Shown here: one piece after another, positions 36,538-63,455 of the stretch
Layout: the number at the start of each line of letters is the position of its first letter
How positions within the stretch are numbered: the stretch's first letter is position 1
DNA from: a virus
Virus record (IMG/VR): IMGVR_UViG_3300025096_003663
Location: 1-64,000 of that record
DNA: 64,000 nucleotides
Reading direction: 5' to 3' (one strand)
Position numbers and translations under genes: made by a program
Notes under the pieces: model-generated
Databases searched by the model: none
The model's input: the letters and a program-made list of their open reading frames with translations, nothing else
Told to the model about the DNA's origin: nothing

Positions 36538-38331
36538 ATGCCCTCTGGCAAAAAGATATCAATAAATTATACAAGCAGGGACTTTGACACCATCAAGAGT
36601 GATCTGGTCAACTATGCTAAAAAATACTATTCTGACACTTATCAGGATTTCTCGGAAACTGGATTCGGCTCTTTGATGCTGGATACGGTTTCTTATGTGG
36701 GAGACATTCTCTCATTCTATGTAGACTACCAGGCGAACGAGGGATATCTAGCAAGTGCCATTGAATACGATAATGTGGTCCGCCATGCCCGACAACTAGG
36801 ATACCGGCTAAACAAGAGCCCTTCTTCCTATGGTACTGTAGCTTTTTATATAGTAGTCCCGGCAGTTGTAGATGGACCGAACCGAGCATATATGCCGATC
36901 CTCAAGCAGGGGTCCGTTCTCTCTTCCGACAACAACACCAGATTTACCCTAACAGAAGATGTGGATTTCGCTAATACCAAAAACAATGTCGTAGTTGCCA
37001 CAGTAAACAGCACAACCGGTCTGCCGACATCCTATGCAATCCAAGCTTACGGGCAAGTGGTTTCCGGAAGAATCGTCGAAGAGACAGTTTCAGTCGGCGA
37101 CTATGAAAGATTTAGGAAAGTCGAATTAGGCGGCACCGATATAGCGGAAATAGTTTCAATCGAAGATGCCGAAGGGAATGAGTATTTCGAGGTAGAAAAC
37201 TTATCTCAAAATGTTATTTTCCGAGCAGTAACAAATACCAACTCAGACGACAGAGAAAACACCCCATATCTTCTTAAACCACGATATATCTCCAGAAGAT
37301 TTACGACTGAAAGAGATAGAAATATAACAACAATACAGTTTGGTAGCGGAGATGAGAGCTCAGATAAGAGTTCAGCCATTTCAGAACCAAGCTCTGTAGT
37401 TATGTTTTCCTACGGCAAAGAATATATTTCAGATACAGCAATAGATCCAACAAGGCTCGTTGATTCTAACAAATTTGGAGTCGCCCCGTCTAACACATCG
37501 CTTAGAATAAGATATCGACTCAACAGTGCTGCTAGCAATAATGTGTCTGCCGGCGGTTTGACATCAATTGAGACATCTAACTTTTCTTTTGAAAACGAAA
37601 ATGATTTATCTAATATTCTCGTAGAATCTGTAGTATCTTCTGTTGAAGCAAACAATGAGAGTGCTATTGTTGGCAACATTTCGCTACCAACATCTGAAGA
37701 GATAAAAATAAGAAGCTTAGGTATGTTCTCAACACAGCATAGAGCAGTTACCAGGGAAGATTATATCAACCTCACTTATGCAATGCCAGAAAAGTTTGGA
37801 GCCGTGAAGAGAGCAAATCTTATCCAGGACAACAAATCTTTTAAGCGAAATCTAAATCTTTATATCATCTCAGAAGACGAGAACCAAAAGTTGGTACAGT
37901 CCAATCAATCTCTAAAAAGTAACTTAAAAACTTGGCTAAATAAGAACAAGATGATATCTGATTCGATTGATATACTAGATGCCAAGATAGTCAACTTTGG
38001 CATTGAGTTCGAAGCAATCGGAGAGGTAGACCAAGATAACTTTGACTTACTATCTGATGCTGTCGAGGCTCTATCTGAAAAATTCACAAAGAACTACGAC
38101 ATCTCGGAGAATATTTACATCTCAGACATCTACTCTACTCTAAAGAATGTTGATGGAATCTTGGATGTAACCAGTGCCAAAGCTGTCCTGAAAGTCGGCG
38201 GAGTATACTCTGATGTATTTTACGACTTCCAAGAGAACCTTTCGGCAGACGGAAGAATGATAAACATACCGAATAATGTCATCGTAGAACTTAAGCTGCC
38301 AGACATAGACATAAAAGGAGTTATTAGATAA
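36538..38331 (+). CDS. baseplate wedge subunit, T4 gp6/J-like
   Basis: YTSRDFDTIK..L, DFSE, SYVGDILSFY.D..ANE, ARQLGY, IQFGSG and RAVTREDY; SD ggaggagg. Confidence 0.9.
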   Translation: MPSGKKISINYTSRDFDTIKSDLVNYAKKYYSDTYQDFSETGFGSLMLDTVSYVGDILSFYVDYQANEGYLASAIEYDNVVRHARQLGYRLNKSPSSYGTVAFYIVVPAVVDGPNRAYMPILKQGSVLSSDNNTRFTLTEDVDFANTKNNVVVATVNSTTGLPTSYAIQAYGQVVSGRIVEETVSVGDYERFRKVELGGTDIAEIVSIEDAEGNEYFEVENLSQNVIFRAVTNTNSDDRENTPYLLKPRYISRRFTTERDRNITTIQFGSGDESSDKSSAISEPSSVVMFSYGKEYISDTAIDPTRLVDSNKFGVAPSNTSLRIRYRLNSAASNNVSAGGLTSIETSNFSFENENDLSNILVESVVSSVEANNESAIVGNISLPTSEEIKIRSLGMFSTQHRAVTREDYINLTYAMPEKFGAVKRANLIQDNKSFKRNLNLYIISEDENQKLVQSNQSLKSNLKTWLNKNKMISDSIDILDAKIVNFGIEFEAIGEVDQDNFDLLSDAVEALSEKFTKNYDISENIYISDIYSTLKNVDGILDVTSAKAVLKVGGVYSDVFYDFQENLSADGRMINIPNNVIVELKLPDIDIKGVIR

Positions 38332-39746
38332 TGGCTATTAAGAGATATATTGCTGATGCAGATAACACCATAACGGATGCCCTTAAATCAAACCTGATTG
38401 ACTCCGGAAGCCTAGCAAACATGGGAGAGGCAGACATCCTAGAGGTTTTCTCAATAAGAGGACAAGCCACATCTTCATCACTAGAGATTTCTCGGGCACT
38501 AACAAAGTTCCCAGTATCTACTATCATATCTGACCGAGCGGCAGGCACGATACCAAAGAGCGGAAGCACCAACTTTGTGTTACGACTTTCCAATGCTCCT
38601 CACTCGGAGACAACCCCAACAAAATTTAATTTAACAGTCCAGCCTATTTCCCGCTCTTGGGAGGAGGGATACGGGCTAGATATGGAAGAGTATAAAGACC
38701 TCGGGGCATCTAACTGGGTATCCTCATCTACAGGAGTATCTTGGACGACAGAGGGAGGGGATTATCTCACTTCTTCAAACTATAATGTATATTTTCCCGG
38801 CGGCGACGAAGATTTAGAAGTTGATATCACAAACCTCGTTGAGCAATGGATTGATGGAACCTTTTCCAACTATGGAGTGGGGGTTCATCTAACAGCCAGC
38901 GAGGAGAACTCTTCTAGAAGCTATTACACGAAAAAGTTCTTCGCCAGGGACAGCGAGTTTTACTTTAAGCGCCCATATGTCGAAGCAAGATGGGACTCTT
39001 CTGTTTCAGACGACAGGAACCAGTTTATTATCAGCAGTTCTCTTTTGCCGGCTGAGGATAATCTAAATAAGATCTATTTTTATAATAAATTTCGTGGAAA
39101 GTTTGTTAATGTGCCGGCAGTTGGAACGGGCAGCATATATGTTAGCCTCTATTCCGGTTCGGTCGGTCCTCTTGGAAGTAAACTAGATCTCCAAGGTGCC
39201 GCCACTTCCATAGAAGGAGCTTATGTCTCGGAAGGGATATATTCCGCATCGGTAGCTATTGACACGAGTTTTACTACATTATACGATGTATGGCACGATA
39301 ATGCTGGAACCGAGTTTTTTACCGGCAGTGCTATCAATCCAGTATCGTTCAATGCTTCATCGGATGACGAAGACGAAGAATACATCATTAAAATAACTAA
39401 CTTGAAATCTTCATATTCTAAGAACGAAAAATCACAGTTTAGAATGTATGCGAGAACAAAAGATTGGTCACCAAATATTTACACAATCGCCACTTCAGAC
39501 ATAGAGAATACTACAATAAACGATATGTACTACAAGCTCTATAGGAGCTCTGATTTGTATGAAGTCATTCCGTATGGCACTGGAAGCACGAACCATACGA
39601 AGCTTTCTTACGATGATAAGGGAAACTACTTCAATTTTGATATGTCTCTCCTACAAGAGGGCTACGAATATACATTCAAATTCTTGATAGAAGAGTACGG
39701 TGAATTTGTGGAACAGAAAGAAGAATTTAAATTTAGAGTTGATTAA
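38331..39746 (+). CDS. virion structural protein (beta-rich, DNRLRE-like N-domain)
   Basis: Follows the gp6-like gene; ADNTI, SRAL.KF, SWEEG.G and DITNLVEQW patterns. Confidence 0.65.
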   Translation: MAIKRYIADADNTITDALKSNLIDSGSLANMGEADILEVFSIRGQATSSSLEISRALTKFPVSTIISDRAAGTIPKSGSTNFVLRLSNAPHSETTPTKFNLTVQPISRSWEEGYGLDMEEYKDLGASNWVSSSTGVSWTTEGGDYLTSSNYNVYFPGGDEDLEVDITNLVEQWIDGTFSNYGVGVHLTASEENSSRSYYTKKFFARDSEFYFKRPYVEARWDSSVSDDRNQFIISSSLLPAEDNLNKIYFYNKFRGKFVNVPAVGTGSIYVSLYSGSVGPLGSKLDLQGAATSIEGAYVSEGIYSASVAIDTSFTTLYDVWHDNAGTEFFTGSAINPVSFNASSDDEDEEYIIKITNLKSSYSKNEKSQFRMYARTKDWSPNIYTIATSDIENTTINDMYYKLYRSSDLYEVIPYGTGSTNHTKLSYDDKGNYFNFDMSLLQEGYEYTFKFLIEEYGEFVEQKEEFKFRVD

Positions 39747-39748
39747 GA

Positions 39749-42700
39749 ATGGGAATTAAAGATTTATTTAATAACGAGAAAGATACTAAAGTAGTATCTG
39801 CTACGAACAAGAAGAATATTTCCGAGGAAATTGAGTCCGAAGGGTATTATACATCCGAAATACAGGAAAAGAACAAGTTCGAGCCCCATGTTGACTATTC
39901 GCTACCAAGAAACTTTGCTAAGTTTGGTTCGGCGAAGAAGTATTATGAAGACTCAATAACAGGAATATATACCACTTATCCATTCGATGGCTCAAAGAAA
40001 AATAAGACCCAATGGATGCTGACTGCCTCCGGTATTGATAGATATATCTTCGAGAACGAATATCCCAGAACGAACGGCTATATAGACTTTTCTTATGGCG
40101 GCTGGGGATCTACTTCATTATCTACTGGGTCAACCACAGTGTATGCTCTTCCGTCCACCACAGAGTACATTACAATATATGGTGGACCAAATAAAGATCC
40201 GAATGGTTCCGGCAAAACTCTAGCTAGCATTTTCGCCAACTCAAGCTCAAACTTTTATGATGTCTCTGATAATCGAGAATCGAATTTAGAATTTGCCGAT
40301 GGCGGTAACACTGTCGAATGGTGGATGAAGAAAGATGCCTTTGTCGCTGCTGGCCAGCAAGAAGTTGTTTTTGATTTATGGTCTAGCGGATCAACGACGG
40401 GTACCCCTGCCGGCGACTATGGTAGATTTGCTGTTCTCGTTAACAGTTCTTCGTCGCCGATTCATCTCTCTTATTTGTCTGGAATTTTTGGAATTAATGC
40501 TAGTTTTGATGGTGCACTTGCTCCTACAGCGGCATCTATAGCAGACGGCAATTGGCACCACTATGCCATCAGCGCTAATACCACACCATACGAATATTTG
40601 TCTAATACAAAAAGCATTTTGTTTGATGGAGCCGCCGAGTATATCGAAGTTGGAGCGATAGGAGGCACTGCTGATATCGGCGGCCGAACAAATACATCGC
40701 TATCTCTATGGTGCAAGATGACTTCTCTTGCAGTCGCCGCCAATGTTTATGGAAACGGCACCGCCGGAAACACGAATAGATTAAAGATATTGCCCGACGG
40801 CACGTTTCAAGTAACAATGAATAACGCTGGCGGCACTACTTTCCCCGCGACCGGAGCGGGATTAGTTGCCGCTGATACATGGTGTCATTTGGTTTTTACA
40901 TACGACAGTTCAGACACGACCAACGGTGCAAAATTATATATCAACGGGGTCATTCAGAATGGAGCGGGCGACGCAACTAATGGCGCCTTGGATATTCCGA
41001 CACAGGCACCAGCGCTGGCTAGCGGTCGCGCCGGCACAGCCGCTAGTCCATTTCCTGGGAATATAGATGAACCGAGTTTTTGGGATAGAACACTTTCCGC
41101 ATCTGAAGTTCTAGGACTTTATAACAATGGAACTCCAACAGATCTAAAGGGCATGCCTGGATTAATATGCTGGTATAGGATGGGAGACGATCCTCGCGAT
41201 AGTACAGACAGCACCGATCCCGCAGCGAGAATTTATGATCAAGTGGGCAGCAACAACGGCACTCCTGTAGATATGGAATCCACAGATATAGTTGAAGATG
41301 TGGCCGGCATCGGGCAGTGGGGGCGCATAAAAGCAGACTTGTATGTGGACGGTGTGTATAAAGATTCAGTTTCTGGGAGCGGAATCAATGAAGTAACAGG
41401 AGCACTAATCGCCAATGTTGGATCTTATTACGAGGCTAGGGCAGCAGACGATTTATCTGTTGAGTTTACTGGATCTGTTGTTCCCGGATGGTGTAAACTC
41501 TCCGCCTCTATTGACGAATTTCGTTTCTGGAAAACTGCTAGGACTGATAAGCAAATAGGAATGAATTGGTTTACTCAAGTGGGTGGCGGCACAAACATTG
41601 ACGATGCAAACACCGACCTCGGTGTCTATTATAAGTTCAACGAAGGAATCACTCAAACTGTCAGCATTGACTCGAAAGTCTTAGACTATTCTGGTCGATT
41701 CTCTGATGGTACCTGGACTGGGTATAGCGCTGGAGCAAGGAGCACTGGCTCTGCCATGGTGGATGCCGGTGCCACAGATTCAGAGTTCAAGGATCCCATT
41801 ATCTACTCTTTCCACCCAGAAGTGGTTTCACTATCGACGACCAAAGCGATGGAAGGCACAGAATATGATTATGGGAATGCTTCTAGTATTTATTACAGCA
41901 TCCCGTCTTGGATCATAGAAGAGGACGACACAAGAGGAGATTTATTAAACCTAACTCAAATAATCTCAAGCTTCTTCGACTCTCTCCAACTGAAGATCCA
42001 GGATATCCCAAGGCTCAAAGATGTTCAGTATGTCTCATCCTCTCAAAAGCCTTATCCGTTTACGAAGCGAGGAATAGAGTCGCTAGGCTTCACAGCCCCA
42101 GATTTATTTGTAGAATCAACTCTCCTCGAAAATGTAGCTTCCAGAAATGAGACAGAGAATTTCGACGAGAAAATATACAATATCAAAAATGTGATATATC
42201 AGAACATCTACAACAATCTTCTGTATATCTACAAGACAAAGGGAACTGCTAAATCTTTTAGAAACCTAATGAGATGCTACGGCATTGATGAAGAGTTGAT
42301 GAGAGTCAATCTCTACATCGACGGAGCCACTTACGATCTGGAAGACGGCTATAAGATAGAAGGCTTGGATAAGAAGTTCGTCAACTTTGCCGGACCAGAT
42401 AGATTCAATGGCTCTGTTTACCAGACAGCCTCTTCCGACATATCCAACTCGGTTTCGTTCCTCACAGCTTCCACTTTCGATCATCCAATGACTGTCGAAG
42501 TCGAGGCAATATTTCCAAAGAAATTCACAAAAGAGGACACTCTCTATTTCGAGACAAACTTTGTTTCCTCTTCTCTATTCGGCATTCATACAGCCAAAGA
42601 TGATGGAAGCGACTATACTTGGGAGACAGGAGATCCCGCCAACTTCCAAGTATATTCGGTAAGAAACTCAACTGAATCTGCTCACGGAAAGTTCGTTCTA

Positions 42701-44245
42701 AAGAGCACAAGCGAAAATTCGCCTTTCCCAACTCTGGAAACAGAGATCTACAAAGACCTCTATGATAATACTAACTGGAATTTTGCCGTAAGGCTCAAGC
42801 AAGAGTATGAGATACTAAACACGGGCTCAGTCCCGATTCCAGCTAGCGACAACTCATACATCCTAGAGTTCTATGGTGTCGAGACAGAAGGAGACTATGT
42901 AAGAAATGAGTTTATCCTAACCTCATCCCTTGCTTATGCTTCTGGTTCAAACTTTATCAAGAATAATAAGAGGCTCTACACAGGAGCTCACCGAACTAAC
43001 TTCACTGGCTCTACATTGGAGAAGACGGATGTTAAGATAACTTCTAATCGAGTTTGGTACAGCTATCTAGACAGCGAAGTCATGAGGGTCCACGGCAAAG
43101 ATTCTACAAACTACGGCACGAAATATCCGTTCGAGAACACATATGCCCTATACAAGGAGATAGGTGTTGAGATTCCCTCGATTGATACTCTCGCTCTCCA
43201 TTGGGGATATAACACCCTAAGCAGCTCGGATGGCGGCAGCGGTCCAGGATACACAGCAGGCTTCCATGTCGATGATCTATCTTCTGGCTCAACAGCAGCA
43301 AATGTTACTTATGGCTCTCTCGATGATGTCTTGAAGAAGGAACACCCAGGACGAGGAAACTTCTTCCTAGCATCAGACACCGATGCTATCACTAAAGAGT
43401 ATCTCTCGAATGCTAAGCTTCAAGGTCCGGAAACTATGCAGTCCGATGATCTGATTCAGATAATCAACGGGCAAGACGATCAAATATTCACAAGAGAATC
43501 CAGACCACAACAATTCAGGTATGCTATTGAGAAAGGAATGCACCAGGTTATTTCGGACGAAATGATAAATGTTTTCGGCTCGATCATCGACTTCAACAAT
43601 CTTATCGGAGAGCCCGTAAACAGGTACCGCCAAGATTATCAGGATCTAGGAAAGCTAAGACAGATATTCTTCAGCCGAGTAAAGAACACTCCGAATCTCA
43701 TAAAATATGTAGACTTCTTCAAATGGATCGACGGCTCCATCACAGAGATGCTACAACAGCTTATTCCAGCTACTTCAAACTTTTCACCAGATGTGGCAAC
43801 CGTTGTCGAGAGTCACATACTCGAAAGAAATAAATACTACAACAAGTTTCCGACAATAGAATTCAAAGAAAACATCCCAGAAGATGCGGCAAGAGGAATC
43901 AATGAACTTTGCTATCCCTGGAAAGAGGGTCATGCTCCACAAAACGGGAAGCAAAACACTAGCTGTTTTTGGTGGAGAAACAGAGCAACCCCAGGACAAC
44001 TCCCTCTAAACCCAGACCCAGACTCTGTTCGTTCCGGAGTAATAAGCATTGCCCACAGCTCATTTCAGAGAGAACTAAATACTCTATACCGATTTTCTGG
44101 TGACGGCATTCTAAATACTGATGAGGATGCTAATGATCTAAGTGTGGTGAAATCAGTTATTAAGTTTGGAGCCAAGGGATTTATTTCCATTTCTGCTGAT
44201 GATGTAGCTCTGGAAGAGGAGGATTGTACAGATGGGGAAGAATAA
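39749..44245 (+). CDS. large baseplate/tail protein with LamG (ConA-like) domains
   Basis: TVEWW.K, WHHYAIS, LYVDG and IDEFRFW, plus a second set SLSLWCK, WCHLVFTYD, LYING and GNIDE. YKTKGT..SFR resembles gp7/P2-I-type wedge motifs. Confidence 0.8.
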   Translation: MGIKDLFNNEKDTKVVSATNKKNISEEIESEGYYTSEIQEKNKFEPHVDYSLPRNFAKFGSAKKYYEDSITGIYTTYPFDGSKKNKTQWMLTASGIDRYIFENEYPRTNGYIDFSYGGWGSTSLSTGSTTVYALPSTTEYITIYGGPNKDPNGSGKTLASIFANSSSNFYDVSDNRESNLEFADGGNTVEWWMKKDAFVAAGQQEVVFDLWSSGSTTGTPAGDYGRFAVLVNSSSSPIHLSYLSGIFGINASFDGALAPTAASIADGNWHHYAISANTTPYEYLSNTKSILFDGAAEYIEVGAIGGTADIGGRTNTSLSLWCKMTSLAVAANVYGNGTAGNTNRLKILPDGTFQVTMNNAGGTTFPATGAGLVAADTWCHLVFTYDSSDTTNGAKLYINGVIQNGAGDATNGALDIPTQAPALASGRAGTAASPFPGNIDEPSFWDRTLSASEVLGLYNNGTPTDLKGMPGLICWYRMGDDPRDSTDSTDPAARIYDQVGSNNGTPVDMESTDIVEDVAGIGQWGRIKADLYVDGVYKDSVSGSGINEVTGALIANVGSYYEARAADDLSVEFTGSVVPGWCKLSASIDEFRFWKTARTDKQIGMNWFTQVGGGTNIDDANTDLGVYYKFNEGITQTVSIDSKVLDYSGRFSDGTWTGYSAGARSTGSAMVDAGATDSEFKDPIIYSFHPEVVSLSTTKAMEGTEYDYGNASSIYYSIPSWIIEEDDTRGDLLNLTQIISSFFDSLQLKIQDIPRLKDVQYVSSSQKPYPFTKRGIESLGFTAPDLFVESTLLENVASRNETENFDEKIYNIKNVIYQNIYNNLLYIYKTKGTAKSFRNLMRCYGIDEELMRVNLYIDGATYDLEDGYKIEGLDKKFVNFAGPDRFNGSVYQTASSDISNSVSFLTASTFDHPMTVEVEAIFPKKFTKEDTLYFETNFVSSSLFGIHTAKDDGSDYTWETGDPANFQVYSVRNSTESAHGKFVLKSTSENSPFPTLETEIYKDLYDNTNWNFAVRLKQEYEILNTGSVPIPASDNSYILEFYGVETEGDYVRNEFILTSSLAYASGSNFIKNNKRLYTGAHRTNFTGSTLEKTDVKITSNRVWYSYLDSEVMRVHGKDSTNYGTKYPFENTYALYKEIGVEIPSIDTLALHWGYNTLSSSDGGSGPGYTAGFHVDDLSSGSTAANVTYGSLDDVLKKEHPGRGNFFLASDTDAITKEYLSNAKLQGPETMQSDDLIQIINGQDDQIFTRESRPQQFRYAIEKGMHQVISDEMINVFGSIIDFNNLIGEPVNRYRQDYQDLGKLRQIFFSRVKNTPNLIKYVDFFKWIDGSITEMLQQLIPATSNFSPDVATVVESHILERNKYYNKFPTIEFKENIPEDAARGINELCYPWKEGHAPQNGKQNTSCFWWRNRATPGQLPLNPDPDSVRSGVISIAHSSFQRELNTLYRFSGDGILNTDEDANDLSVVKSVIKFGAKGFISISADDVALEEEDCTDGEE

Positions 44246-44393: not shown

Positions 44394-44420
44394 TTACAAC
44401 AAACAGAACGGAGATTTCCA

Positions 44421-54034: not shown

Positions 54035-57000
54035 ATGTTGAGTATAGAAGCAATAAAAAGCACAGTTCCTGTTGCAAATATTAAGTCCATTATCTTACAA
54101 AACCCCTCGTCTACAGTGGGATCAGGCACGGGGATGGTAGTTCGAGTAAAGGCAACAGCCATTACAACAGCTAACGAATTGGGTTTTGATACTTCAGCCT
54201 CCACAGCATTTTTGTCGGTACCAAAATTAGAATTTAATTCACACCTCGGAGTAGCACTAATCCAAAGCACTAGTACCAAACTCACCTCTCTCCTTCAATC
54301 CTTTGGAACGAACCTTTTGAAATATATAGGACCGGCTAATCAGTGGAAAGGTAATGCCGCCTTTGATAGTTTTTTGAGTCATAAACTTGGCAACTCTGTG
54401 GCGATTCCTGACTTTAAAGCAAAGTTTATGGAGGTGATACATCAGCCTCTTTTCGGCAATATCGAGTCTCCGATTTTGGAGAAAATAGACAACAACGGAC
54501 AAACAATCAAAACAGTCCCATTAGAATTCGAGTTTAGTGTAGATAAGCAAACCCCCACTCATTTAACTTATTTTATTGTAAGCTTTTTAGATATTAACGG
54601 AATTGTGGAAGAAGTAAATTCACAGTCTCCCTTTCCTGACTCCGATGGAGCTCCCACTCTAGGATTGAACACAGTCGATTTGGAAAATCTCACAGGACTT
54701 TCATCTCCAGTAAAAAATGACACTATCTTTCAAGCAGGCATACTCTCTGGACACACTTCCTTTTTTCAACTTCCGAATGGAAAATTTTGGACGGGTCCGG
54801 TAGAGAAAGAGGGCGGTACTTACCAAACAGATACCAAAATTCCTCTTACTGTCCGAGAAGCTAGAAATGTGAAGATTCAAGATTTTAGAAATCTTGAGCC
54901 GCTTGAAGCGGTAGAAGTAATGAGCGATTTCACAGGAGAGAAAGAACAACTACGACTTATCTTGGAGAACTTCAAGCCTCGGATTAGGACTCTTGATCCA
55001 TCTCGAAACAAGCCTCACCCATATATTAGCGAATTATTTTCATCTATCGGTGTCCACAACAAAGTAAATCTCATGTTTATGATAAATTTTGAAGATATGT
55101 TGTTTAGCAACTCGATATATGGCGAACTGTGGAAGACAGTATATGCTGATATAAAACAGCAGATTTTTGAATTTTCGGCGATAAAATCGCTTAGGGTTTA
55201 TCGTCAGCAAGTAGAGGAAGAGAAAGGCACTAATTCCATAGGTTCGCCAGTTCAGAGACTAACACCAGTTCAAGGAACATTTCCGGAACTCATTGCTGTG
55301 TCCGGGCAAAGCCAAAACTCTTCGACACTCACAGAAGTTGCCAATTTTAAAGAAGAGACTAAAATGACACTATCGGAAGGAACCAGTATTAGGTGCTTTA
55401 GTATCACTGACAGCTCCATTCCTGAATCATCGATTTCACAGTATCGTTATTATGTAGAAATGGATTTGTATGATGGATCGTCAGATTTCCTGAAGTCGAA
55501 GGTGCAAGTTTTACAGAAATTCCTATATACACTGGAAAATTATCTTTCGGATATAATGAACTCTACTCTCCGAAATGACAGCGCCGCCGGAGACGATCAG
55601 CTTCGAAGAGAGGGATACAGCCCACAGTTTGGCAACCTTACAGAAGGCTTCGCTACGAAGATGAGGGGAAAATATCAAACTCGGCTAAAGGCAGGTGTTG
55701 CAAGCTTCTTAGAGGTCATATCCCTCTTCACACCTGATAATACACCGAGTAATACTGAGTTAGACGAAGTAGGCTTTTCCGTATCCGCCACTCAAGAGTT
55801 TATGAATATGATATTAAACCCTAGCCACACAAACCCAGAAAGCATCGGTGCTGCATTACAAATCGTCGCGACAACTATTTCCCAAATCCTGTCTTTTGTT
55901 GGCGAGGATTTAGCATCTCAAGACCCAGCCGCCATCCTACCAGCATCTTCTCCTCGGTCCACCTCAAAAAGATGCGCTATGATTTCTAAACAGTTTTCAC
56001 AAGCAGTGGATATGAGGGAATTAAGCTCTGGAGGGTACGATTACCTTTCTTCAAATTTAGCTGTAGCAACATCCGAGCCCAACAATCTAGGTCTTCGAGA
56101 CATAGGAGGTATTGCTTTTAGACAGAGAGTTCAATCGGAAACTTTAAAATACTATGTTCAGACACAACCAGATTTGACTACTGGACTAACATCTGACAAG
56201 AAAAGTTATGGAGGCACTGTTACTGTTGGGTACCGAGAAATGAGCTATTTGTCACCATCCCAAGTATTCGTCGGTCCCACTACCGACAAAACCATCGATC
56301 TTCTCGGATTCCTCAAGACCAACGAAAGGGCAATAGTGTTAGAATCACAAATAGTCAACAATACACTCAGCCAGAGAAACTCAGTTGTTGCCAGTACGGT
56401 ACCAGATCAGTTTTCTGTTACCTTCAAGAAAGCCTGGGACAACAAGGAGCGAAAGTTTTCCCCACCACAGCAAGTGTCGTTTTTTGAAGAAAATATGAAT
56501 CTAATAAAGACACCGCTACGACCACCCGGCGCCCCCGTCGTTAATGCCTCCCAATCCACAACCGAAGATGGTGAAGTGCTCGTGATCTTCGGAGGAGACG
56601 GCAAAACAAGGACAGCTCCAGCTTCCCTCTATCAGTCCTTGTTCAATAAAAGGATGGCGAATACAGAACCAGACCGTGAAAAATATGATATAAATAATAC
56701 CAGCAATTTTTTAGAGTCTATGACAACAGATCAGGTAAGGGACTTACCAAATCAAATAAAGGCATTATTTCAATCAAGCACCGGAGCCCAATCAGAAGTG
56801 AACCCAACAAATAGGGCTGAGAAAAATCTTCTTAGCGATCCAAGCCTAAGTGCCATCTCGACATTTCGATATAAAATGATTGTTGAAATTCAGTGCCTGG
56901 TGCAATTCGACAAGCTGGATGGACGATATTCGCTCTCGTCGCCAATCTGGACAACACTAGACGAGAAGCTGTTTAGCTCTTTTGTCGATAAGAAAGTGCT

Positions 57001-58069
57001 TTGCCGTCTAGTAGAGTATTCGGCACCACCAGAATTTGGGTTGAATCACCCGGAAGATTTGAAGATGCATGTGCATGATCGATATTTCACCCTCTCGCCA
57101 GATACTATGGTGACGAATCCGGTATCAGTTGGGGCAACAGAATCGACATCGTTTATCAACCACGATTACGAATTCGTGAATTCGGATTTTGACGGATCCC
57201 CTGAATTTGGAATGACATACTTACCCACCAGCCCCCCGAAGCCTGTCGATCCTAGGATTTTGAATGCCATAGATCGCCTTAAACACTTTACCAACAAGTT
57301 GAGCGAAAATTCAATCATGGATGCCTTTCATTCGATTCCAGGCAGCACAAAGAAATCATCAACGAGCCCGAGTGACTCTATGCTTCGAACTGACGAGATT
57401 GCAATTTTGTCGGCAACTCAAAAAGCCACATCTGCTAAGCTGGCGAAGCTCAATAAGACAATTGACTCAACTCGGGGATTATTAAAGGCGAAAGAGAGAG
57501 AGGCATCGCTGACAACGGCTAACATAGTGTCCAATTCTTTCACCTCTTCGGAGAAAGCACAGCTCCAGCAAAAGAGTGTTTCGATAGCTCAAGAGATGAA
57601 CTCGCTAAGGGTAAAACTAGCGAATGACGAGCAGCAGCAAAGCGCGGCAAAAGAGGCTCTAAACATAGCCAACAATAATGCCGAGTCTTTCTCTTCCGGC
57701 GGAAAGAGCTATACTTCGGTGGAAGATCCAAACAATGTCTCTCAGGTTGGTCCGCCTAATCAAACATTTACATCAACAGAACAGCTTATGACTGATTATG
57801 GCTTACTGATAAGCTCTATAGAGCATGACGCATCCCTGGGAATTGTCAAAGAAGAGAATATTGACAAACTTCAGAAGTATTCGGGCTACATTGCCGGGCA
57901 AGATGGCGACACCGAACAATTCTCAAATGAGATTGAAAGTATCAAGATCTCATCCCAAGAGCCGGACACTGTTGTTAAGAATGCTGAAGAGTTACAGCAG
58001 AAAGAGCTCGTTACCTCTTCGGGCACCGTCGTCGGGAAGAATCAAACTAATAGGGGTGTTAAGAAATGA
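54035..58069 (+). CDS. large hypothetical protein in the structural module
   Basis: 1344-aa uninterrupted ORF with a C-terminal coiled coil. Confidence 0.7.
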   Translation: MLSIEAIKSTVPVANIKSIILQNPSSTVGSGTGMVVRVKATAITTANELGFDTSASTAFLSVPKLEFNSHLGVALIQSTSTKLTSLLQSFGTNLLKYIGPANQWKGNAAFDSFLSHKLGNSVAIPDFKAKFMEVIHQPLFGNIESPILEKIDNNGQTIKTVPLEFEFSVDKQTPTHLTYFIVSFLDINGIVEEVNSQSPFPDSDGAPTLGLNTVDLENLTGLSSPVKNDTIFQAGILSGHTSFFQLPNGKFWTGPVEKEGGTYQTDTKIPLTVREARNVKIQDFRNLEPLEAVEVMSDFTGEKEQLRLILENFKPRIRTLDPSRNKPHPYISELFSSIGVHNKVNLMFMINFEDMLFSNSIYGELWKTVYADIKQQIFEFSAIKSLRVYRQQVEEEKGTNSIGSPVQRLTPVQGTFPELIAVSGQSQNSSTLTEVANFKEETKMTLSEGTSIRCFSITDSSIPESSISQYRYYVEMDLYDGSSDFLKSKVQVLQKFLYTLENYLSDIMNSTLRNDSAAGDDQLRREGYSPQFGNLTEGFATKMRGKYQTRLKAGVASFLEVISLFTPDNTPSNTELDEVGFSVSATQEFMNMILNPSHTNPESIGAALQIVATTISQILSFVGEDLASQDPAAILPASSPRSTSKRCAMISKQFSQAVDMRELSSGGYDYLSSNLAVATSEPNNLGLRDIGGIAFRQRVQSETLKYYVQTQPDLTTGLTSDKKSYGGTVTVGYREMSYLSPSQVFVGPTTDKTIDLLGFLKTNERAIVLESQIVNNTLSQRNSVVASTVPDQFSVTFKKAWDNKERKFSPPQQVSFFEENMNLIKTPLRPPGAPVVNASQSTTEDGEVLVIFGGDGKTRTAPASLYQSLFNKRMANTEPDREKYDINNTSNFLESMTTDQVRDLPNQIKALFQSSTGAQSEVNPTNRAEKNLLSDPSLSAISTFRYKMIVEIQCLVQFDKLDGRYSLSSPIWTTLDEKLFSSFVDKKVLCRLVEYSAPPEFGLNHPEDLKMHVHDRYFTLSPDTMVTNPVSVGATESTSFINHDYEFVNSDFDGSPEFGMTYLPTSPPKPVDPRILNAIDRLKHFTNKLSENSIMDAFHSIPGSTKKSSTSPSDSMLRTDEIAILSATQKATSAKLAKLNKTIDSTRGLLKAKEREASLTTANIVSNSFTSSEKAQLQQKSVSIAQEMNSLRVKLANDEQQQSAAKEALNIANNNAESFSSGGKSYTSVEDPNNVSQVGPPNQTFTSTEQLMTDYGLLISSIEHDASLGIVKEENIDKLQKYSGYIAGQDGDTEQFSNEIESIKISSQEPDTVVKNAEELQQKELVTSSGTVVGKNQTNRGVKK

Positions 58070-60306
58070 GTCACAGTAAAGTAGGTAAAAGGGCGGCATA
58101 CATCAATAAATCGCTTCTAAGAATTTCTTCTTCTGATATACCAGATCCGATTAGAAAAATTCTTAAGAGGTATTACACCACAAAAGAGGAATCTATAAAA
58201 TATGCTCAGGATTTATTTCCATCTCCGTATTTTAATTCAAGTGTGAAAGAAAACAGTCTAGATGTCGGACTAATAGCCTCCGTCCCCCTAGAAAGACTAT
58301 ACGAATTTGCTTCTGCCGTCAATACGACTGCTAGATTTTCGGACTACTATTATCGGAAAGTGCTTCCTATGGATAAAGACACATTAGAAAAATCCAACAA
58401 AGTAGGCACCACAGACTATATCGATGTAAACTCTTATTATAGCTTTTATGCTAAAATATATGAAAGTGTTCTCTCAAAAAACCCTACATTGCCAGAAAAT
58501 ATACTCCCCAGCTTTTATGCTCTATATGCTCAGGGGGTTTATGAGCAAGACAATGTAAAGCCTCTCAACAATATTGACTCAAACTTTAAATCCGATATCG
58601 CCGAGGGCTTCTTTTCTTCCTTAGCAGGCAATGAGAAAGTAAAGTCGAGATTTATGAAGTATTTCAACGACTATGGAACAGCCTTGTCTAATATGATATC
58701 TTCTGACAGCGAAAGTGCTACGACCCTCAGCAATCTGAGTCTAAATTATTCAACCTATGTCTTTACTGAATCCAGTATTCCCCTCTTTACTTCCGAGGCA
58801 ACAAAGGGAGAAATGTTTCCTATGTATAACAAGGTTTCTTTCTCTACAGATACTAACACGGCATTTTCCAACATACTGAGAGAACTCAAGATCGAGAAAG
58901 AGCTTGTCCGAGAGATAGTTGGAACTGCTGAAGACGAGTTAGTTCCTTTTGGGCAGAGTATTGAAAAATATACCCCTTCAGACTCTGGACCTCCGAATCC
59001 TTCCGATGCCTTTAGTGATCAGAAGATGAAGATGTGGGATGTAAAAGAGTGGATTACTGATAAAATTTTTAACAGTGTGCCAACCGGAGTGGAGATAGGA
59101 GAAAAGGAAAAGTTGGTATCCGCTGCCGACGAGTCCATTCAAAAGTTGTTTACGAAAATGATTCTCTCCGCCCGGATAAATGATCTTTCTAAAAACAGAC
59201 TTAGAACCTTGGAGGAGATGATGGACGGTAAGCCGTCATATTCTGAAGAAGTAATGTACAAGATAGAGAAATTTGATTATCTCGAAACAAAAAGCCCCAC
59301 CGTTCAGAGGAATCCGATTGCTACATTCTACATACCGAATTCATCAAAGCTAGATGTTTGTAACTTCATCGATACTCAAGTTAAGTATGGGAAGCGATAT
59401 AAGTATGTTGTTTATTCCTATGACCTGGTGATCGGCAGCGAGTATAGCTATCCTGATGCCTCTTCGAAGGATGGTAAAATCTTAAAGGTGACTGTGAAAT
59501 ATGACCCTAGCATTAAAATAATAGAAAACAAGATTTCCGAATTGGATGAGGTAGTCGTAGTGGATCACCCTCCTATGGCTCCGGGTATCTCTTTTGTTCC
59601 ATACCGAGAAATAAATAATAAGGTATTAATCAACCTAAACTCTTCGACTGGAGATAGGCTTTTAGTGCCTGTGACTCTCGATAACTCAGATGTTGAGAAG
59701 TTTGAGTTGATTAAAAAGTCACAAAGAAGAATAGATGATAAAATTCGCTTTAAATCTGACGATATATCTGCTATATTTGAAGTGTACCGGACTACAGAGA
59801 AGCCTAAGAGCTATCAAGATTTCGCCGGCAAAAAATATACTGTCACAGGAGAACTATCTTCGGCAGCCGCTTTTAGAGATGATATAGAGCCTAATACGGA
59901 CTATTATTATTCCTTTAGGACTAGGGATGTTCATGGCAATGTGTCGAATCCGTCTGTTGTCTACAAAATCAAGATGGAAGATCTTGGGGATGGTCCCCAC
60001 TTTCTAGATGTTGATGTGGTAGACTTCGAGGAAATGGACACTGCAGCCACCGGCAAAGAAGTAGTGAAGGCAATGAGAAGGTATGTTCAGATACTACCAA
60101 CTGTCCCCCAAGGGCTACTTAATGTAAAGGAATCTGATTTGTTAGATGTAAATACTGTCGATGGAGTGACTAGTGTAGTTCTTGGAGTAGCTGACGAATC
60201 ATTATGGAATAAGAAATTTAAAATTAGATTTACATCTAAGAAGACAGGAAGAAAGGTTGATTTAGATGTAAATTTTGTTGTAGAACATAAACTAAAACAA
60301 ACTTAA
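58066..60306 (+). CDS. hypothetical structural protein with FN3-like C-terminal domains
   Basis: FIDTQVKYGKRYKYVV and FEVYR...FRDDIEPNTDYYYSFRTRDVHGNVSNPS. Confidence 0.7.
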   Translation: MSHSKVGKRAAYINKSLLRISSSDIPDPIRKILKRYYTTKEESIKYAQDLFPSPYFNSSVKENSLDVGLIASVPLERLYEFASAVNTTARFSDYYYRKVLPMDKDTLEKSNKVGTTDYIDVNSYYSFYAKIYESVLSKNPTLPENILPSFYALYAQGVYEQDNVKPLNNIDSNFKSDIAEGFFSSLAGNEKVKSRFMKYFNDYGTALSNMISSDSESATTLSNLSLNYSTYVFTESSIPLFTSEATKGEMFPMYNKVSFSTDTNTAFSNILRELKIEKELVREIVGTAEDELVPFGQSIEKYTPSDSGPPNPSDAFSDQKMKMWDVKEWITDKIFNSVPTGVEIGEKEKLVSAADESIQKLFTKMILSARINDLSKNRLRTLEEMMDGKPSYSEEVMYKIEKFDYLETKSPTVQRNPIATFYIPNSSKLDVCNFIDTQVKYGKRYKYVVYSYDLVIGSEYSYPDASSKDGKILKVTVKYDPSIKIIENKISELDEVVVVDHPPMAPGISFVPYREINNKVLINLNSSTGDRLLVPVTLDNSDVEKFELIKKSQRRIDDKIRFKSDDISAIFEVYRTTEKPKSYQDFAGKKYTVTGELSSAAAFRDDIEPNTDYYYSFRTRDVHGNVSNPSVVYKIKMEDLGDGPHFLDVDVVDFEEMDTAATGKEVVKAMRRYVQILPTVPQGLLNVKESDLLDVNTVDGVTSVVLGVADESLWNKKFKIRFTSKKTGRKVDLDVNFVVEHKLKQT

Positions 60307-60316
60307 TACTATTTAT
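60306..60316 (+). promoter_or_regulatory. candidate late promoter motif ATACTATTTAT
   Basis: Lies at the gene boundary 19 nt before ATG 60336; identical to 9835-9845. Confidence 0.5.
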
Positions 60317-60335
60317 TACGATAGGAGTGAATAAA

Positions 60336-61274
60336 ATGGCTTTTTTGGATAATTCTGGAGATATTATATTAGATGCGGTGCTGACCGATACGGGCAGGCT
60401 CCGGCTAGCACGAGGCGACGGCTCGTTTAGAATAGCGAAGTTCGCACTAGGCGACGACGAAATCGACTACGGGAAATACAACGCCAACAATCTAAGCGGC
60501 AGCGCCTACTACGATTTAGACATCCTCAAGACACCAGTCTTCGAGGCATTCACAAACAATGCTTCAAACATGCAATCTAAACTAATCTCAATCGCTAGAA
60601 CGAATTTATTGTATCTTCCGGTAATAAAGAAAAACACCCGAGATGCCTCAACAGCTATGTATTCCGACTCTGATGTCTCTAATTTATTTTTAGTTAGTGT
60701 CGATAATACAACCACTACAGCGATTAAGAATTGGGAACCAGATACTCAGGGCATTCTCTTCCCGACGGATAGTTCCAATGCCCATATTCGCTTAGATCAG
60801 GGGCTCGATACTGATCAGCTAACTGCTGCAAACCCTATCGACGCCGATCTTAAAGAGACACAATATATCGTAGAGATGGATAATCGATTTGGATATCTAC
60901 TGTCAAAGACGAACGAGAAAGCAGATATTTCCTTTGTTGATGATGATAGCATAGCTAGTTATTTCCTATCCCAAGGGGTTGTTAGTAGCAACTTTATCAA
61001 GAATATGGAACCTAACAGTACGGACGGCAGCAATAAGGCAGGTTCCAGTTTGGCGGGACCGAGAGGAACGAAACTAACGACGAAGATTCGGGCATCTACC
61101 GATCTTTCTTCCACAACATTCTTGTTCTCCAAGCTTGGCTCGACAATGACTCTCCCGACTGGAACGGGTGGTTCGGCTGAAACTTATCTTACCATAGATA
61201 CTGTACTAAAAGTTACCGGGGCAACTACAGGATACAAAATTGATGTGCCCGTTAGGTACATTAAAAAGCAATAG
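60336..61274 (+). CDS. virion structural protein
   Basis: SD aggag at 60323-60327; MAFLDNSGDIILDAVLTDTGRLRLARG...IAKFALGDDEIDY. Confidence 0.75.
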   Translation: MAFLDNSGDIILDAVLTDTGRLRLARGDGSFRIAKFALGDDEIDYGKYNANNLSGSAYYDLDILKTPVFEAFTNNASNMQSKLISIARTNLLYLPVIKKNTRDASTAMYSDSDVSNLFLVSVDNTTTTAIKNWEPDTQGILFPTDSSNAHIRLDQGLDTDQLTAANPIDADLKETQYIVEMDNRFGYLLSKTNEKADISFVDDDSIASYFLSQGVVSSNFIKNMEPNSTDGSNKAGSSLAGPRGTKLTTKIRASTDLSSTTFLFSKLGSTMTLPTGTGGSAETYLTIDTVLKVTGATTGYKIDVPVRYIKKQ

Positions 61275-61284
61275 AGGTTAAATA

Positions 61285-62325
61285 ATGGCAACAGTTTATA
61301 AAACATTTCTCAATAACGATGTCGCTTCGACACGAACTTTACTACACGAATCGGTCCCGGTCACGGGCACCATCGTCTCAGGCACATACGCCGACACTAA
61401 CATCAAGAACTACTCCCACGGACTCTTCCAGTCTGTGTATGACTATCCATACCTTAGTTCGTCAGCGAATCACATCTTTGATATCACATGCGGATACTCT
61501 AGCACTTCTCCATTATCCGCCTCCGCTGTAACAGACGGTGTTGCTGCTAGCGACATTAAAGACAAAATCAATATGTACAACCAGATGGCTCAAGTTCTAG
61601 TAGGGCACGATGTCGAAGGAAATATCCAAGAGTTCGATCAGGACGGAGATATTTCAGGCGGCGGCACTAAGATGAAAGAAGCCTATGTTCTAAACTTCGC
61701 TCGCCTCTTGACAAAAGACGAAATAAAGAAGGGCTCGTTTTCTCTCAAGGTTGCCACAGGCTCGGCAAACGATCCGGTTGACTTCGCAGACTTGCTGACG
61801 ATATCTGACTACGGAGCGGAAAACGATTATCGAGTAAACTCACCAGCAGCAGAATATGGAATTCTGTATACATCATCTGCTACTCCAAGCTCAGACTCTG
61901 GGGTTGGACTGCTGTATTATCAAGCTGGAGTTGCTGTGCTTACAGCATCACTTTTCGACGGTGCCCTGCTGGCTGACTCTGAAACATATACTGGCTCTCT
62001 CTCGGCATCCAACATTCAGTCTAATGCTGATGCTATTCGAGCCAGGATCTACGATGTGGCATACAATAATACGACAGAACTAAACTCATCAGTTTATTTT
62101 TGCCGAGTGAATCACAACGAGTTTAACTATAGTGCTAATCCTACATACCTGAGCAGCAGTAAGATCGTAGTGAAAGACCAAGCCACGGATGCTCCTGTTT
62201 CGTATACGACTACTGTCGGACTGTATTCTGCCGATAATGAACTTTTAGCAGTCGCGAAAGTTTCGGAGCCTCTTAAGAAGGATCCGACGAATGAGCTGAT
62301 TCTTCGGGTAAGACTAGATTACTAG
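61285..62325 (+). CDS. virion structural protein
   Basis: IKKGSF, EFNYSANPT and the C-terminal YTTTVGLYSADNELLAVAKVSEPLKK. Confidence 0.75.
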   Translation: MATVYKTFLNNDVASTRTLLHESVPVTGTIVSGTYADTNIKNYSHGLFQSVYDYPYLSSSANHIFDITCGYSSTSPLSASAVTDGVAASDIKDKINMYNQMAQVLVGHDVEGNIQEFDQDGDISGGGTKMKEAYVLNFARLLTKDEIKKGSFSLKVATGSANDPVDFADLLTISDYGAENDYRVNSPAAEYGILYTSSATPSSDSGVGLLYYQAGVAVLTASLFDGALLADSETYTGSLSASNIQSNADAIRARIYDVAYNNTTELNSSVYFCRVNHNEFNYSANPTYLSSSKIVVKDQATDAPVSYTTTVGLYSADNELLAVAKVSEPLKKDPTNELILRVRLDY

Positions 62326-62336
62326 AAACATGAATT

Positions 62337-63455
62337 ATGTCGTTTTACAAATTCGATCCTAGCGATATTCTCTACAACAGGATAAGAACTTATCCTCGGG
62401 TCCACTTTGATATTCACACGGGCTCGATATATTATAACGAGAATGTCAACAAGTTTGGAACCCCAAACGGAAATGTATCACTCCAGGAGCTAGCTACACT
62501 GAAAGCATCTGGGGGAGACTATTATACTTTCGTTACGAAGGATAGTGGACTTGCAGCTTTCAATACTGTATCCACCACGGCTTTTAACGGACTGAGTTTT
62601 GGCGATGTGATTACTTCGTCTCTCCCACAAACAGCTTCGATCTCTATTGAATACCACGAAGAGGGAGACAGTCGCCTTCACATTGATGCTCTGAGAACTC
62701 ACACGGACAACTATACTTACCTAAGCAATCATTATGCTTTTAGTTCCTCTTTAGGAGATAAGGACACACAATCGCTAACATTGGTGAGCTTCCCGTCCAT
62801 TTTCTACGGCTCATCTATCAAGAAGGGGAGTGTAGATTTAAAATTTTATATCACTGGAACACTGATCGGGCAACTTAGAGATGAATACGAAAACGGCGAA
62901 CTTATACAAGTTGGTCCGCCTGGTAGCACGGGGTCGGGGAGTGTTGCCGGTGTAGCATACTACGGAGAGGGGCTTCTCCTCCTCACGGGAAGCTGGAACA
63001 TCACAGAAGAGTCTCAAGATTTTTATGACGGACTGGATTATCCAAAGTGGAAGTATTTTGCCTCGCCAGGAATTCCGCCATTCCCAGAAACAGAATCAAC
63101 GAATTATTCGATTGATCTCAGCGGCACGAACTATGTTCCAGTGGTTACAATGTTGGCTCATGCTAAAAAGGCTCATCTAAACCACTCGAACAATCCCACG
63201 GTCATTACTTATGGACAAGCTAATACCAGAGACACTGGAACTCTTGGGTTTTATGAGCGAACGGACTTAGATATTAAAAATGTAGCCAAATACCCGTATA
63301 ATGAAGATACGGGCTCTTTTAAGAAAGAAACATATGTCTCCAAAATTGGAATATACGACGAAAACAGAAACTTGATTGGGATTGCAAAACTGGCAACCCC
63401 AGTAAGAAAAAGAGAAAATGATAACTTCACTTTCAAAATGAAAATGGATTTTTAG
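62337..63455 (+). CDS. virion structural protein, paralog of 61285-62325
   Basis: IKKGSV, G..YY..G...LT.S, NHSNNPT and YVSKIGIYDENRNLIGIAKLATPVRK. Confidence 0.75.
   Translation: MSFYKFDPSDILYNRIRTYPRVHFDIHTGSIYYNENVNKFGTPNGNVSLQELATLKASGGDYYTFVTKDSGLAAFNTVSTTAFNGLSFGDVITSSLPQTASISIEYHEEGDSRLHIDALRTHTDNYTYLSNHYAFSSSLGDKDTQSLTLVSFPSIFYGSSIKKGSVDLKFYITGTLIGQLRDEYENGELIQVGPPGSTGSGSVAGVAYYGEGLLLLTGSWNITEESQDFYDGLDYPKWKYFASPGIPPFPETESTNYSIDLSGTNYVPVVTMLAHAKKAHLNHSNNPTVITYGQANTRDTGTLGFYERTDLDIKNVAKYPYNEDTGSFKKETYVSKIGIYDENRNLIGIAKLATPVRKRENDNFTFKMKMDF

Follow-up and report, generated by a model that had tools for sequence, protein, structure and literature searches.

A Thr/Ser-small-Ser motif concentrated in the outer tail proteins of an aquatic myovirus lineage that carries glycosyltransferase genes

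The DNA analysed here (hereafter the window) comprises the first 64 kb of an 81,247-bp IMG/VR virus contig (IMGVR_UViG_3300025096_003663; G000), the completeness of which is estimated by CheckV at about 45%. The + strand holds nearly all of its genes, in the order AceB, AceA, PhoH, a glycan locus (13.4-24.0 kb), a gene for a 2645-residue protein, genes for gp25-like and gp6-like baseplate wedges, and a group of tail-module genes whose products carry many copies of the tripeptide [ST][GAS][ST]. These motif carriers are the subject of this report and are named by their first coordinate. A first-pass annotation, made from the letters alone, had proposed that the tripeptides are acceptor sequons for the soluble glycosyltransferases of the glycan locus, which would build a glycan coat on the virion. 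The carriers and their neighbours are as follows:

36538..38331, +: gp6-like baseplate wedge, 597 amino acids; PHROG baseplate wedge subunit, E 1e-17; motif-free contrast
38331..39746, +: g38331, 471 amino acids; directly follows the gp6-like wedge; modelled as a beta-sandwich chain; motif carrier
39749..44245, +: g39749, 1498 amino acids; LamG (Laminin_G_3) domain, PF13385, E 1.5e-26; motif carrier
44421..44909, +: g44421, 162 amino acids; small virion-type protein with a PHROG virion structural protein match
44922..45230, +: g44922, open reading frame (ORF) of 102 amino acids; near-exact internal duplication of about 25 residues
45284..52921, +: g45284, 2545 amino acids; two runs of FG-GAP_2 blades; PF14312 in 10 stretches, E 2.4e-74
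54035..61274, +: three structural-module neighbours (1344, 746 and 315 amino acids); not enriched; internal controls
61285..62325, +: g61285, 346 amino acids; conserved tail-module protein; motif carrier
62337..63455, +: g62337, 372 amino acids; C-terminal domain in common with g61285 (BLASTP E 3e-6 across the last 50 residues); motif carrier

When overlapping [ST][GAS][ST] tripeptides were counted in each protein and compared with 1000 whole-protein shuffles, six of the seven named proteins were significantly enriched, at about two to three times the shuffled number: g38331 (14 vs. 4.8, p 0.001), g39749 (23 vs. 11.5, p<0.001), g44922 (8 vs. 2.6, a figure inflated by its duplication), g45284 (53 vs. 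26.7, with 32 of the 53 sites inside internal repeats), g61285 (12 vs. 3.6) and g62337 (11 vs. 2.9). For g44421, the excess in this pattern was not significant (6 vs. 4.0, p 0.20). The three neighbours were flat (13 vs. 11.5, 3 vs. 3.7 and 3 vs. 3.2). The concentration of the motif in a subset of virion proteins, as proposed by the first-pass annotation, is thus borne out; its hand counts for g38331, g61285, g62337 and g44421 (12, 11, 10 and 5) come close to those of a program run on the same eight tripeptides (13, 10, 11 and 4), and AceB, AceA and PhoH (starting at 5552, 7223 and 9867; 1402 residues) are indeed motif-free, with about 3.6 sites expected. The gp6-like wedge (36538-38331), 17% of which is Ser and Thr, had also been singled out as lacking the motif. 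This holds in the window (0 vs. 3.8); however, the depletion is not kept in a complete relative of the contig, G002 (1 vs. 2.3), or in the phages immuto (3 vs. 3.2) and Mel-JY01 (2 vs. 2.3), and it is therefore probably due to chance.

The excess depends on the order of the residues. In the seven proteins pooled (5496 residues), the narrower pattern [ST][GA][ST] occurs 89 times vs. 32.4 expected (2.7-fold, z 9.7), whereas the reordered classes [GA][ST][ST], [ST][ST][GA] and [ST][GA][GA] stay at 1.2, 1.1 and 1.0 times expectation, and six other structural proteins of the window (6013 residues) at 0.8-0.9. In an unbiased ranking of all tripeptides, TGS comes first (21 vs. 4.3) and TAS third (19 vs. 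3.7). It is reasonable to ask whether composition, low-complexity patches, repeats or a DNA word could produce such numbers, since the carriers are rich in Ser, Thr and Gly, and g45284 and g44922 hold repeats. However, shuffling inside 12-residue blocks still leaves a pooled ratio of 2.3, and local composition is therefore no explanation, as the first-pass annotation had already suspected. When both FG-GAP blade runs of g45284 are masked and g44922 is dropped (hereafter the masked set), 58 [ST][GA][ST] sites remain vs. 22.4 expected (z 8.0), and g38331, g39749, g61285 and g62337 have no internal repeats at all. A word at the DNA level is ruled out, because 36 [ST][GA]S sites in five proteins are encoded by 33 different 9-base words that use all six Ser codons. 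An artefact of this kind is thus largely refuted, and we regard it as highly improbable; the motif excess is real, order-specific and limited to a subset of virion proteins.

The masked set also allows the motif to be defined more sharply. The enrichment is tied to Ser in the third place: [ST][GAS]S is found 72 times vs. 21.0 (3.4-fold), while [ST][GAS]T, which the first-pass annotation had included, is not enriched (15 vs. 17.4, 0.86-fold). Place 1 favours Thr (33 of 58 sites, 6.9-fold) and place 3 favours Ser (46 of 58). The hydrophobic residue that had been noticed ahead of the motif is a genuine feature, aliphatic residues being 1.9-fold enriched at position -1 and 1.6-fold at position +3, whereas acidic (4 vs. 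7.3) and basic residues are depleted at -1. Accordingly, a hydrophobic residue followed by [ST][GAS]S (the refined motif) occurs 44 times vs. 6.6 (6.6-fold, z 15), compared with 35 vs. 25.9 (1.35-fold) for [ST][GAS][ST] after a non-hydrophobic residue. By this measure, g38331 (7 vs. 0.94), g39749 (11 vs. 1.97), g61285 (7 vs. 0.66) and also g44421 (4 vs. 0.69, p<0.0025) stand out, and g44922 does not reach significance (2 vs. 0.51). It should be noted that the refined pattern was defined post hoc on data already seen and then tested on more distant sequences. In immuto, it is raised in the protein after the wedge (4 vs. 0.47), in a 1265-residue protein (8 vs. 1.36), in the g61285- and g62337-like proteins (4 vs. 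0.61 and 6 vs. 0.80) and in two annotated tail spikes (8 vs. 0.95 and 30 vs. 5.4). On the other hand, 26 structural proteins of phage T4, pooled, show 10 vs. 12.1 refined motifs (80 vs. 75 for [ST][GAS][ST]), and 33 non-structural proteins of the window 6 vs. 4.5.

The nearest named relatives of the contig, all of them distant, are Flavobacterium phage vB_FspM_immuto, Microcystis phage Mel-JY01 (the host of which is a cyanobacterium), an uncultured 484-kb phage and Rhodothermus phage RM378. A megablast search of positions 36538-44245 against phage records and a tblastn search with g38331 gave no match, and neither Pfam nor PHROGs recognised most motif carriers. The carriers belong to abundant families: more than 4420 of 8000 scored metagenomic candidates are homologues of g38331, and 93 IMG/VR stretches were confirmed for g61285, of which 80 were kept. 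Within these families (78-120 homologues each), the motif sites keep their positions. The 120 homologues of g38331 (50-98% identity) average 9.2 [ST][GA][ST] sites vs. 2.7 expected; 10 of its 14 sites are retained in place in 55% or more of 121 sequences, and the mean column identity of motif residues is 0.77 vs. 0.67 for the remainder. Exchanges at these sites stay within the class (Thr/Ser, Gly/Ala/Ser, and mostly Ser in place 3), although some sites have Asn or Glu in place 3. At sites 77, 331 and 417, Gly is nearly invariant (120-121 of 121 sequences), whereas at many others Gly, Ala and Ser interchange in place 2 (e.g., A39/G19/S14 and S33/G26; sites 78, 220 and 290 of g61285). The g61285 family shows a 3.2-fold excess of [ST][GA][ST] over 80 homologues, with 7 of 12 sites kept in at least 55% of 81 sequences, and the g62337 family averages 4.2-fold over 78 homologues, compared with 1.1- and 1.0-fold in the neighbouring families of g60327 and g58066.

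The same holds for the named phages. Homologues of g61285 are found in immuto (immuto_164), in Mel-JY01 and in the C-terminal part of RM378 p128. In immuto, the gene order after the wedge genes is the same as in the window, and the homologues of the window carriers are likewise enriched. Mel-JY01 mirrors the window gene by gene: its wedge and replication proteins are flat, and the proteins after the wedge show 8 vs. 2.4, 24 vs. 8.5, 12 vs. 4.1, 10 vs. 3.4, 12 vs. 3.1 and 8 vs. 2.9. RM378 belongs to the same lineage and shows a weaker enrichment.

Neither the capsid nor the tube genes are on this contig. In the complete relative G002 (187,750 bp), all 138 non-overlapping ORFs of at least 120 amino acids were scanned without bias. 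For either pattern, 14 of the 138 were enriched at p<=0.01. Nine of these lie in the tail module (69-95 kb) and correspond to the homologues of g38331, g39749, g45284, g44421, g61285 and g62337 together with three tail-fibre PHROG matches. Another four lie at 34-47 kb, including one with a head-tail-adaptor-like end, one FG-GAP-like protein and one of 1172 residues. The last (43035-46553, minus strand), located near the head module and without a PHROG match, consists of coiled-coil-like repeat units, each with an LSSS- or VSGS-type motif, and has 20 refined motifs vs. 3.8. One of the 14, marginally enriched, is the family 4 glycosyltransferase (GT4) itself. The portal, the terminase and most other ORFs of the head module are flat. 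Given that tail and neck ORFs are enriched and the head is mostly flat, the carriers are appendages of the outer tail and neck rather than the virion as a whole. Thus, the motif marks outer tail proteins (baseplate periphery, fibres and neck-region fibres) of a widespread aquatic myovirus lineage, and the coat over the whole virion envisaged by the first-pass annotation is not supported. As regards the arrangement of the modules in the contig, the tail module gives way to a RuvC-like gene (63455-63973) and, at 63952-74100 of G000, to genes for a primase, an SbcC-like nuclease, and then the terminase and portal, so that replication genes separate the tail and head modules.

The placement of the sites in predicted structures was read from DSSP secondary-structure strings and the per-residue confidence (pLDDT) of the models. 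In the AlphaFold2 model of g38331 (predicted template modelling score, pTM, 0.76), a beta-sandwich chain with macroglobulin/FN3-like matches, 10 of the 14 sites would lie in coil flanking strands, five of these in low-confidence loops; of the others, two would lie inside strands, one would end a strand and one would sit where a strand ends and a helix starts. In the model of g62337 (pTM 0.64), sites 28 and 173 are predicted to form two-residue hairpin turns between long strands, two sites lie inside strands and the rest in coil. Many of the sites thus fall at strand ends or hairpin turns, or within strands (two in each model), which limits the acceptor reading or counts against it. Traits of a Gly-dependent two-residue hairpin are present at g38331 77, 331 and 417 (by the Gly) and g62337 28 and 173 (by DSSP), but not at g61285 78, 220 and 290. 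Foldseek returned only generic beta-sandwich matches for g38331 and none at E<=0.001 for g62337, and the FG-GAP run had no match by sequence among solved structures; therefore, no solved homologue is usable for comparing equivalent positions. Only g45284 matches the FG-GAP_2 (PF14312) blade profile, and its blade consensus does contain KLTAS and SGT, in agreement with the first-pass annotation. As far as the models go, exposed turns fit a structural cap and an enzyme target alike, and placement does not decide between them.

The glycan locus postulated by the first-pass annotation (13.4-24.0 kb) is real, as Pfam and NCBIfam searches recognise GT4 domains, a fusion of GT4 with a family 2 glycosyltransferase (GT2) and several sugar-modifying enzymes:

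13352..16644, +: tandem of GT4 (443 amino acids) and GT4+GT2 fusion (660 amino acids); Pfam PF00534 and PF00535; core pair of the lineage
16641..24012, +: accessory sugar genes, namely two unknowns, a formyltransferase, an FkbM methyltransferase, a methyltransferase, a DegT-type aminotransferase, Fcl-like and Gmd

The enzymes also appear to be soluble, as predicted: no membrane-like segment occurs in the locus (highest 19-residue Kyte-Doolittle mean, 1.17). Both GT4 domains keep the E-x7-E signature. Gmd scores 454 bits, above the cut-off of 415, and Fcl-like 279 bits, which falls short of its cut-off. Immuto has neighbouring orthologues of both GT4 genes (E 3e-73 and 2e-59), and an orthologous pair is also present in Mel-JY01 and in RM378 (first gene E 3e-31, second weak), whereas the accessory sugar genes differ between relatives. 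PF00534 was found in 15 of 18 records (13 of 16 IMG/VR relatives, including all three complete ones, plus G000 and immuto), and the three records without it are fragments, 48-57% complete. A relative without glycosyltransferases was sought within the lineage and none was found, since they occur in each of the four named relatives and in every record with a completeness of 64% or more. Each of the seven phage records with a g61285 relative also contains a relative of the first GT4. Among solved structures, the first GT4 is best matched, though weakly, by the chlorovirus NY-2A protein B736L (E 2.6e-7). An NCBIfam scan of both GT4s gave neither GtfA nor GtfB, and BshA, MshA, glycogen synthase and others scored far below their cut-offs. 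In Mel-JY01 (L089, 17-1433), the orthologue of the first GT4 is represented by two ORFs of 165 and 302 amino acids; a frameshift or sequencing error may be the cause, or the gene may really be split. Downstream of the g61285 homologue of RM378, at a distance of three genes and among hypothetical genes, lies the UDP-galactopyranose-mutase-like gene Rm378p124 (L083, 15773-16924). The formyltransferase gene of the window (18007-18693) encodes a PF00551 protein, a family that includes DpdN, the preQ1 formyltransferase described for immuto (bioRxiv 10.1101/2023.04.13.536721). An assignment as DpdN is disfavoured, and a sugar N-formyltransferase is likelier, because G000 and three complete close relatives lack QueC, which only immuto has.

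Whether the motif follows glycosyltransferase genes was examined by scanning the whole genomes of 16 phages (ORFs from 150 amino acids upwards, 200 shuffles, refined motif at p<=0.005), the glycosyltransferase status of the comparison phages being that of searches with two Pfam families:

Lineage members immuto, Mel-JY01, RM378, G001 and G002: 10/115, 6/155, 4/95, 8/137 and 12/125 enriched ORFs; pooled refined ratio 2.4-3.4
Phages without a confident GT4 or GT2 hit (T4, KVP40, T5, SPO1, S-PM2, P-SSM4, Syn9, P-HM1 and S-SM2): 0-2 ORFs each; pooled ratio 0.98-1.56
T4-likes with glycosyltransferase genes (P-SSM2 and HTVC008M): three ORFs each; pooled ratios 1.51 and 1.86

S-SM2 has a sub-threshold GT2 match (18.9 bits). 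P-SSM2 has one GT4 and two GT2 genes, and its enriched ORFs are annotated as tail fibre and tail collar. In HTVC008M, the glycosyltransferase is depositor-annotated, beside a methyltransferase and a carbamoyltransferase, with a Pfam GT2 score of only 17.5 bits, and the enriched ORFs come after the wedge genes. An exact rank test of the GT-bearing groups (3, 3 and a lineage median of 8 ORFs) against the nine others gives p 0.0045, and p 0.028 for the T4-likes alone; applied to pooled ratios, the test does not reach significance (p 0.11). It should be kept in mind that the association comprises about three independent GT-bearing groups and that the status of HTVC008M was noticed after its enrichment. 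Among its proteins, gp057 has 10 refined motifs vs. 2.75, whereas the gp057 orthologues (giant tail proteins) of five cyanophages without GT hits show 1.1-2.0-fold for the refined motif and 1.0-1.7-fold for [ST][GAS][ST]; thus, a structural baseline exists, and the GT-bearing HTVC008M lies above it. The strong excess is therefore not general to phage tails, while a weak form of it is. In the siphovirus S-CBS4, the GT4 of which is 25% identical, one of 26 proteins is enriched, a tail fibre (46 vs. 27.4), a result that as an independent test speaks neither for nor against the association. Its GT4, galactosyltransferase and S-adenosylmethionine-dependent methyltransferase genes (L199, 9916-12282) lie between the portal and the head protease and major head protein, a placement that suggests glycosylation of head proteins; [ST][GAS][ST] is not enriched in the S-CBS4 head proteins. 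Two ORFs in phages without GT hits, P-SSM4 4016-4987 (minus strand) and Syn9 150885-152474, are high in [ST][GAS][ST] (38 vs. 6.6 and 16 vs. 2.8) but not in [ST][GA][ST] (2 vs. 2.6 and 2 vs. 1.9), which points to Ser/Thr runs and hence to a different phenomenon.

DNA appears unlikely as an acceptor of the glycosyltransferases, because in the nucleoside analysis published for immuto (passages of bioRxiv 10.1101/2023.04.13.536721) dA, dC and dT are accompanied by 7-(formylamino)methyl-7-deazaguanine in place of dG, with no mention there of a sugar-bearing nucleoside, and because no thymidylate-synthase homologue is present in three complete close relatives. According to the abstract of PMC13326640, the known pyrimidine glycosylations begin with hydroxymethyl- or hydroxy-pyrimidines that such homologues produce, although another, unknown route is possible. 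A search for TET/JBP enzymes gave no match, but as it gave none in any control genome either, it is uninformative.

Soluble enzymes of the GT4 and GT2 families can also modify lipid-linked glycans of the host at the face of the membrane, and these are a possible acceptor here. The single reading that we consider most likely, at about even odds, is that the motif is a structural turn element and not a sugar address. A strand-favouring Thr (or Ser) would end a beta-strand after an inward-pointing hydrophobic residue, the small residue and Ser would then form a turn or cap that leads into the following strand or helix. The lineage would reuse this element in beta-sandwich, beta-propeller and fibre-shaft modules, repeats such as FG-GAP blades would multiply it, and structure alone would maintain it, with the glycosyltransferase locus either serving another acceptor or modifying the carriers without using the motif as an address. 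The Thr-first, Ser-last asymmetry and the hydrophobic flanks lean towards structure, in that they match strand-turn-strand propensities. Positional conservation, the near-invariant Gly and the Asn or Glu in place 3, as in turns, also fit; the blades of g45284 hold the motif inside a repeat that Pfam recognises; a mild excess is seen without GT hits, the nine such phages pooling at 1.05-1.38-fold; and RM378 and S-CBS4 have homologous GT4 genes yet weak or local enrichment. Several observations, however, speak against a purely structural role. The size of the excess is lineage-specific (2.4-3.4-fold, 4-12 ORFs in each member), while T4 fibres and tail are flat. The motif is found in settings as unrelated as beta-sandwich chains, propeller blades, fibre shafts and coiled-coil-like repeats, and a single fold therefore cannot explain it. 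The exchange of Gly, Ala and Ser in place 2 argues against a turn that requires glycine. Finally, the two T4-likes with GT genes have three refined-motif ORFs each, compared with 0-2 in the seven without.

The alternative, which we consider somewhat less probable than a structural element, is that the GT4 tandem O-glycosylates, in the cytoplasm, the final Ser (or else the initial Ser/Thr) of hydrophobic-[ST]-[GAS]-Ser where it lies on exposed turns of the outer tail proteins. The GT2, Gmd, Fcl-like protein, aminotransferase, formyltransferase and methyltransferases would extend and decorate the glycan, and the tail periphery and fibres would be coated, but not the head. Several parts of the first-pass proposal are supported (the excess, the locus, the solubility of its enzymes and the conserved GT4 tandem); the acceptor role of the motif is a candidate, and the extension to the whole virion is not supported. 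In favour of this alternative are the tandem as a lineage core, with pairs in immuto, Mel-JY01 and RM378; the presence of a first-GT4 relative in all seven phage records with a g61285 relative; the E-x7-E residues and lack of membrane-like segments; the unlikelihood of DNA as acceptor; a pattern sharply defined by its final Ser and confined to outer tail proteins; and the numbers of refined-motif ORFs, which follow GT status. There is also the precedent of GtfAB, a soluble two-protein transferase acting on Ser/Thr in SAS/STS/SSS contexts (PMC5578698). On the other side, the case is built from sequence comparison and models, which make sugar attachment a candidate only; the GT groups are few, one of them with a depositor-annotated enzyme, and the pooled-ratio test is negative; in-strand and tight-hairpin sites and positional conservation fit structure at least equally well; RM378 and S-CBS4 lack broad enrichment despite related GT4s; 32 of the 53 g45284 sites are FG-GAP_2 repeat consensus; and the enzymes may serve lipid-linked host glycans instead. 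The lineage-specific amplitude and the restriction to the outer tail call for a lineage-specific factor, which need not be a glycosyltransferase. The motif might thus mark another Ser modification (phosphate or acyl) or be recognised by a fibre chaperone or assembly factor peculiar to the lineage; we consider this improbable, since no kinase, acyltransferase or dedicated chaperone turned up, albeit in searches not aimed at them, and glycosyltransferases are the only conserved enzymes seen beside the structural module.

In the open-access literature text, we found neither a described O-glycosylation sequon of a phage nor a paper on the virion chemistry of immuto, Mel-JY01 or RM378. The nearest known system is that of mycobacteriophages, in which phage-encoded glycosyltransferases are described as O-glycosylating the virions (Freeman et al. 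2023, cited in PMC12619734; PMC11256854), with glycans at the C-termini of capsid and tail-tube subunits, and no mention of an internal sequon, in the material available from PMC12619734. As in those phages, the phage studied here has soluble glycosyltransferases of its own, and a virion protein is the proposed target; however, the candidate sites are internal, belong to outer tail proteins and are known from sequence alone. The closest analogue in mechanism is GtfA-GtfB of the serine-rich repeat adhesins of Gram-positive bacteria, described as an intracellular two-protein system that initiates glycosylation on Ser/Thr of the SAS/STS/SSS type, the glycan then being extended by further transferases of species-variable number and type (PMC5578698). 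The conserved adjacent GT4 pair, without a membrane-like segment and beside variable accessory genes, resembles this arrangement. Nevertheless, the phage GT4s fall outside the GtfA/GtfB families and both keep E-x7-E, and the sites are isolated four-residue elements in folded beta-rich proteins, in contrast to the long disordered Ser repeats of the adhesins.

The capsids of giant viruses and chloroviruses are glycosylated by virus-encoded enzymes, the major capsid protein of these eukaryotic viruses being decorated. A virus-encoded pathway of the Gmd and Fcl type with soluble transferases is common to them and to the present phage, the candidate targets of which are instead bacteriophage tail proteins. 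The general O-glycosylation motif of Bacteroidota, D-(S/T)-(A/I/L/V/M/T), is not matched, as acidic residues are rarer than expected at -1 and the acceptor would be followed by Gly, Ala or Ser. Likeness to FG-GAP_2 and ordinary hairpin turns is seen in the KLTAS and SGT blade consensus of g45284 and the two-residue hairpins of g62337, whereas the beta-rich tail, baseplate and fibre proteins of T4 have no excess and many sites swap Gly, Ala and Ser.

The lineage includes cultured members, Flavobacterium phage immuto and Microcystis phage Mel-JY01. If the motif proves to be structural, it carries a warning: a conserved, order-specific short motif on exposed virion proteins, beside glycosyltransferase genes, is by itself no proof of a sequon. 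Alternatively, and with a lesser though appreciable likelihood, a lineage infecting hosts from Bacteroidota to Cyanobacteria may O-glycosylate a four-residue address, present in dozens of copies on baseplate-peripheral and fibre proteins, by means of a GT4 tandem. This would be the first defined sequon for the glycosylation of a phage protein. Fucose-type and N-formyl-amino-sugar-type routes, together with O-methylation, would diversify the tail glycan, and a sugar-coated tail periphery could shield the fibres from proteases, host defences and non-productive binding. Modified sites could then be read from sequence, with a bearing on host recognition, particle stability and the interpretation of fibre sequences, and phage tail glycosylation would be far commoner at sea than the few mycobacteriophage cases suggest.

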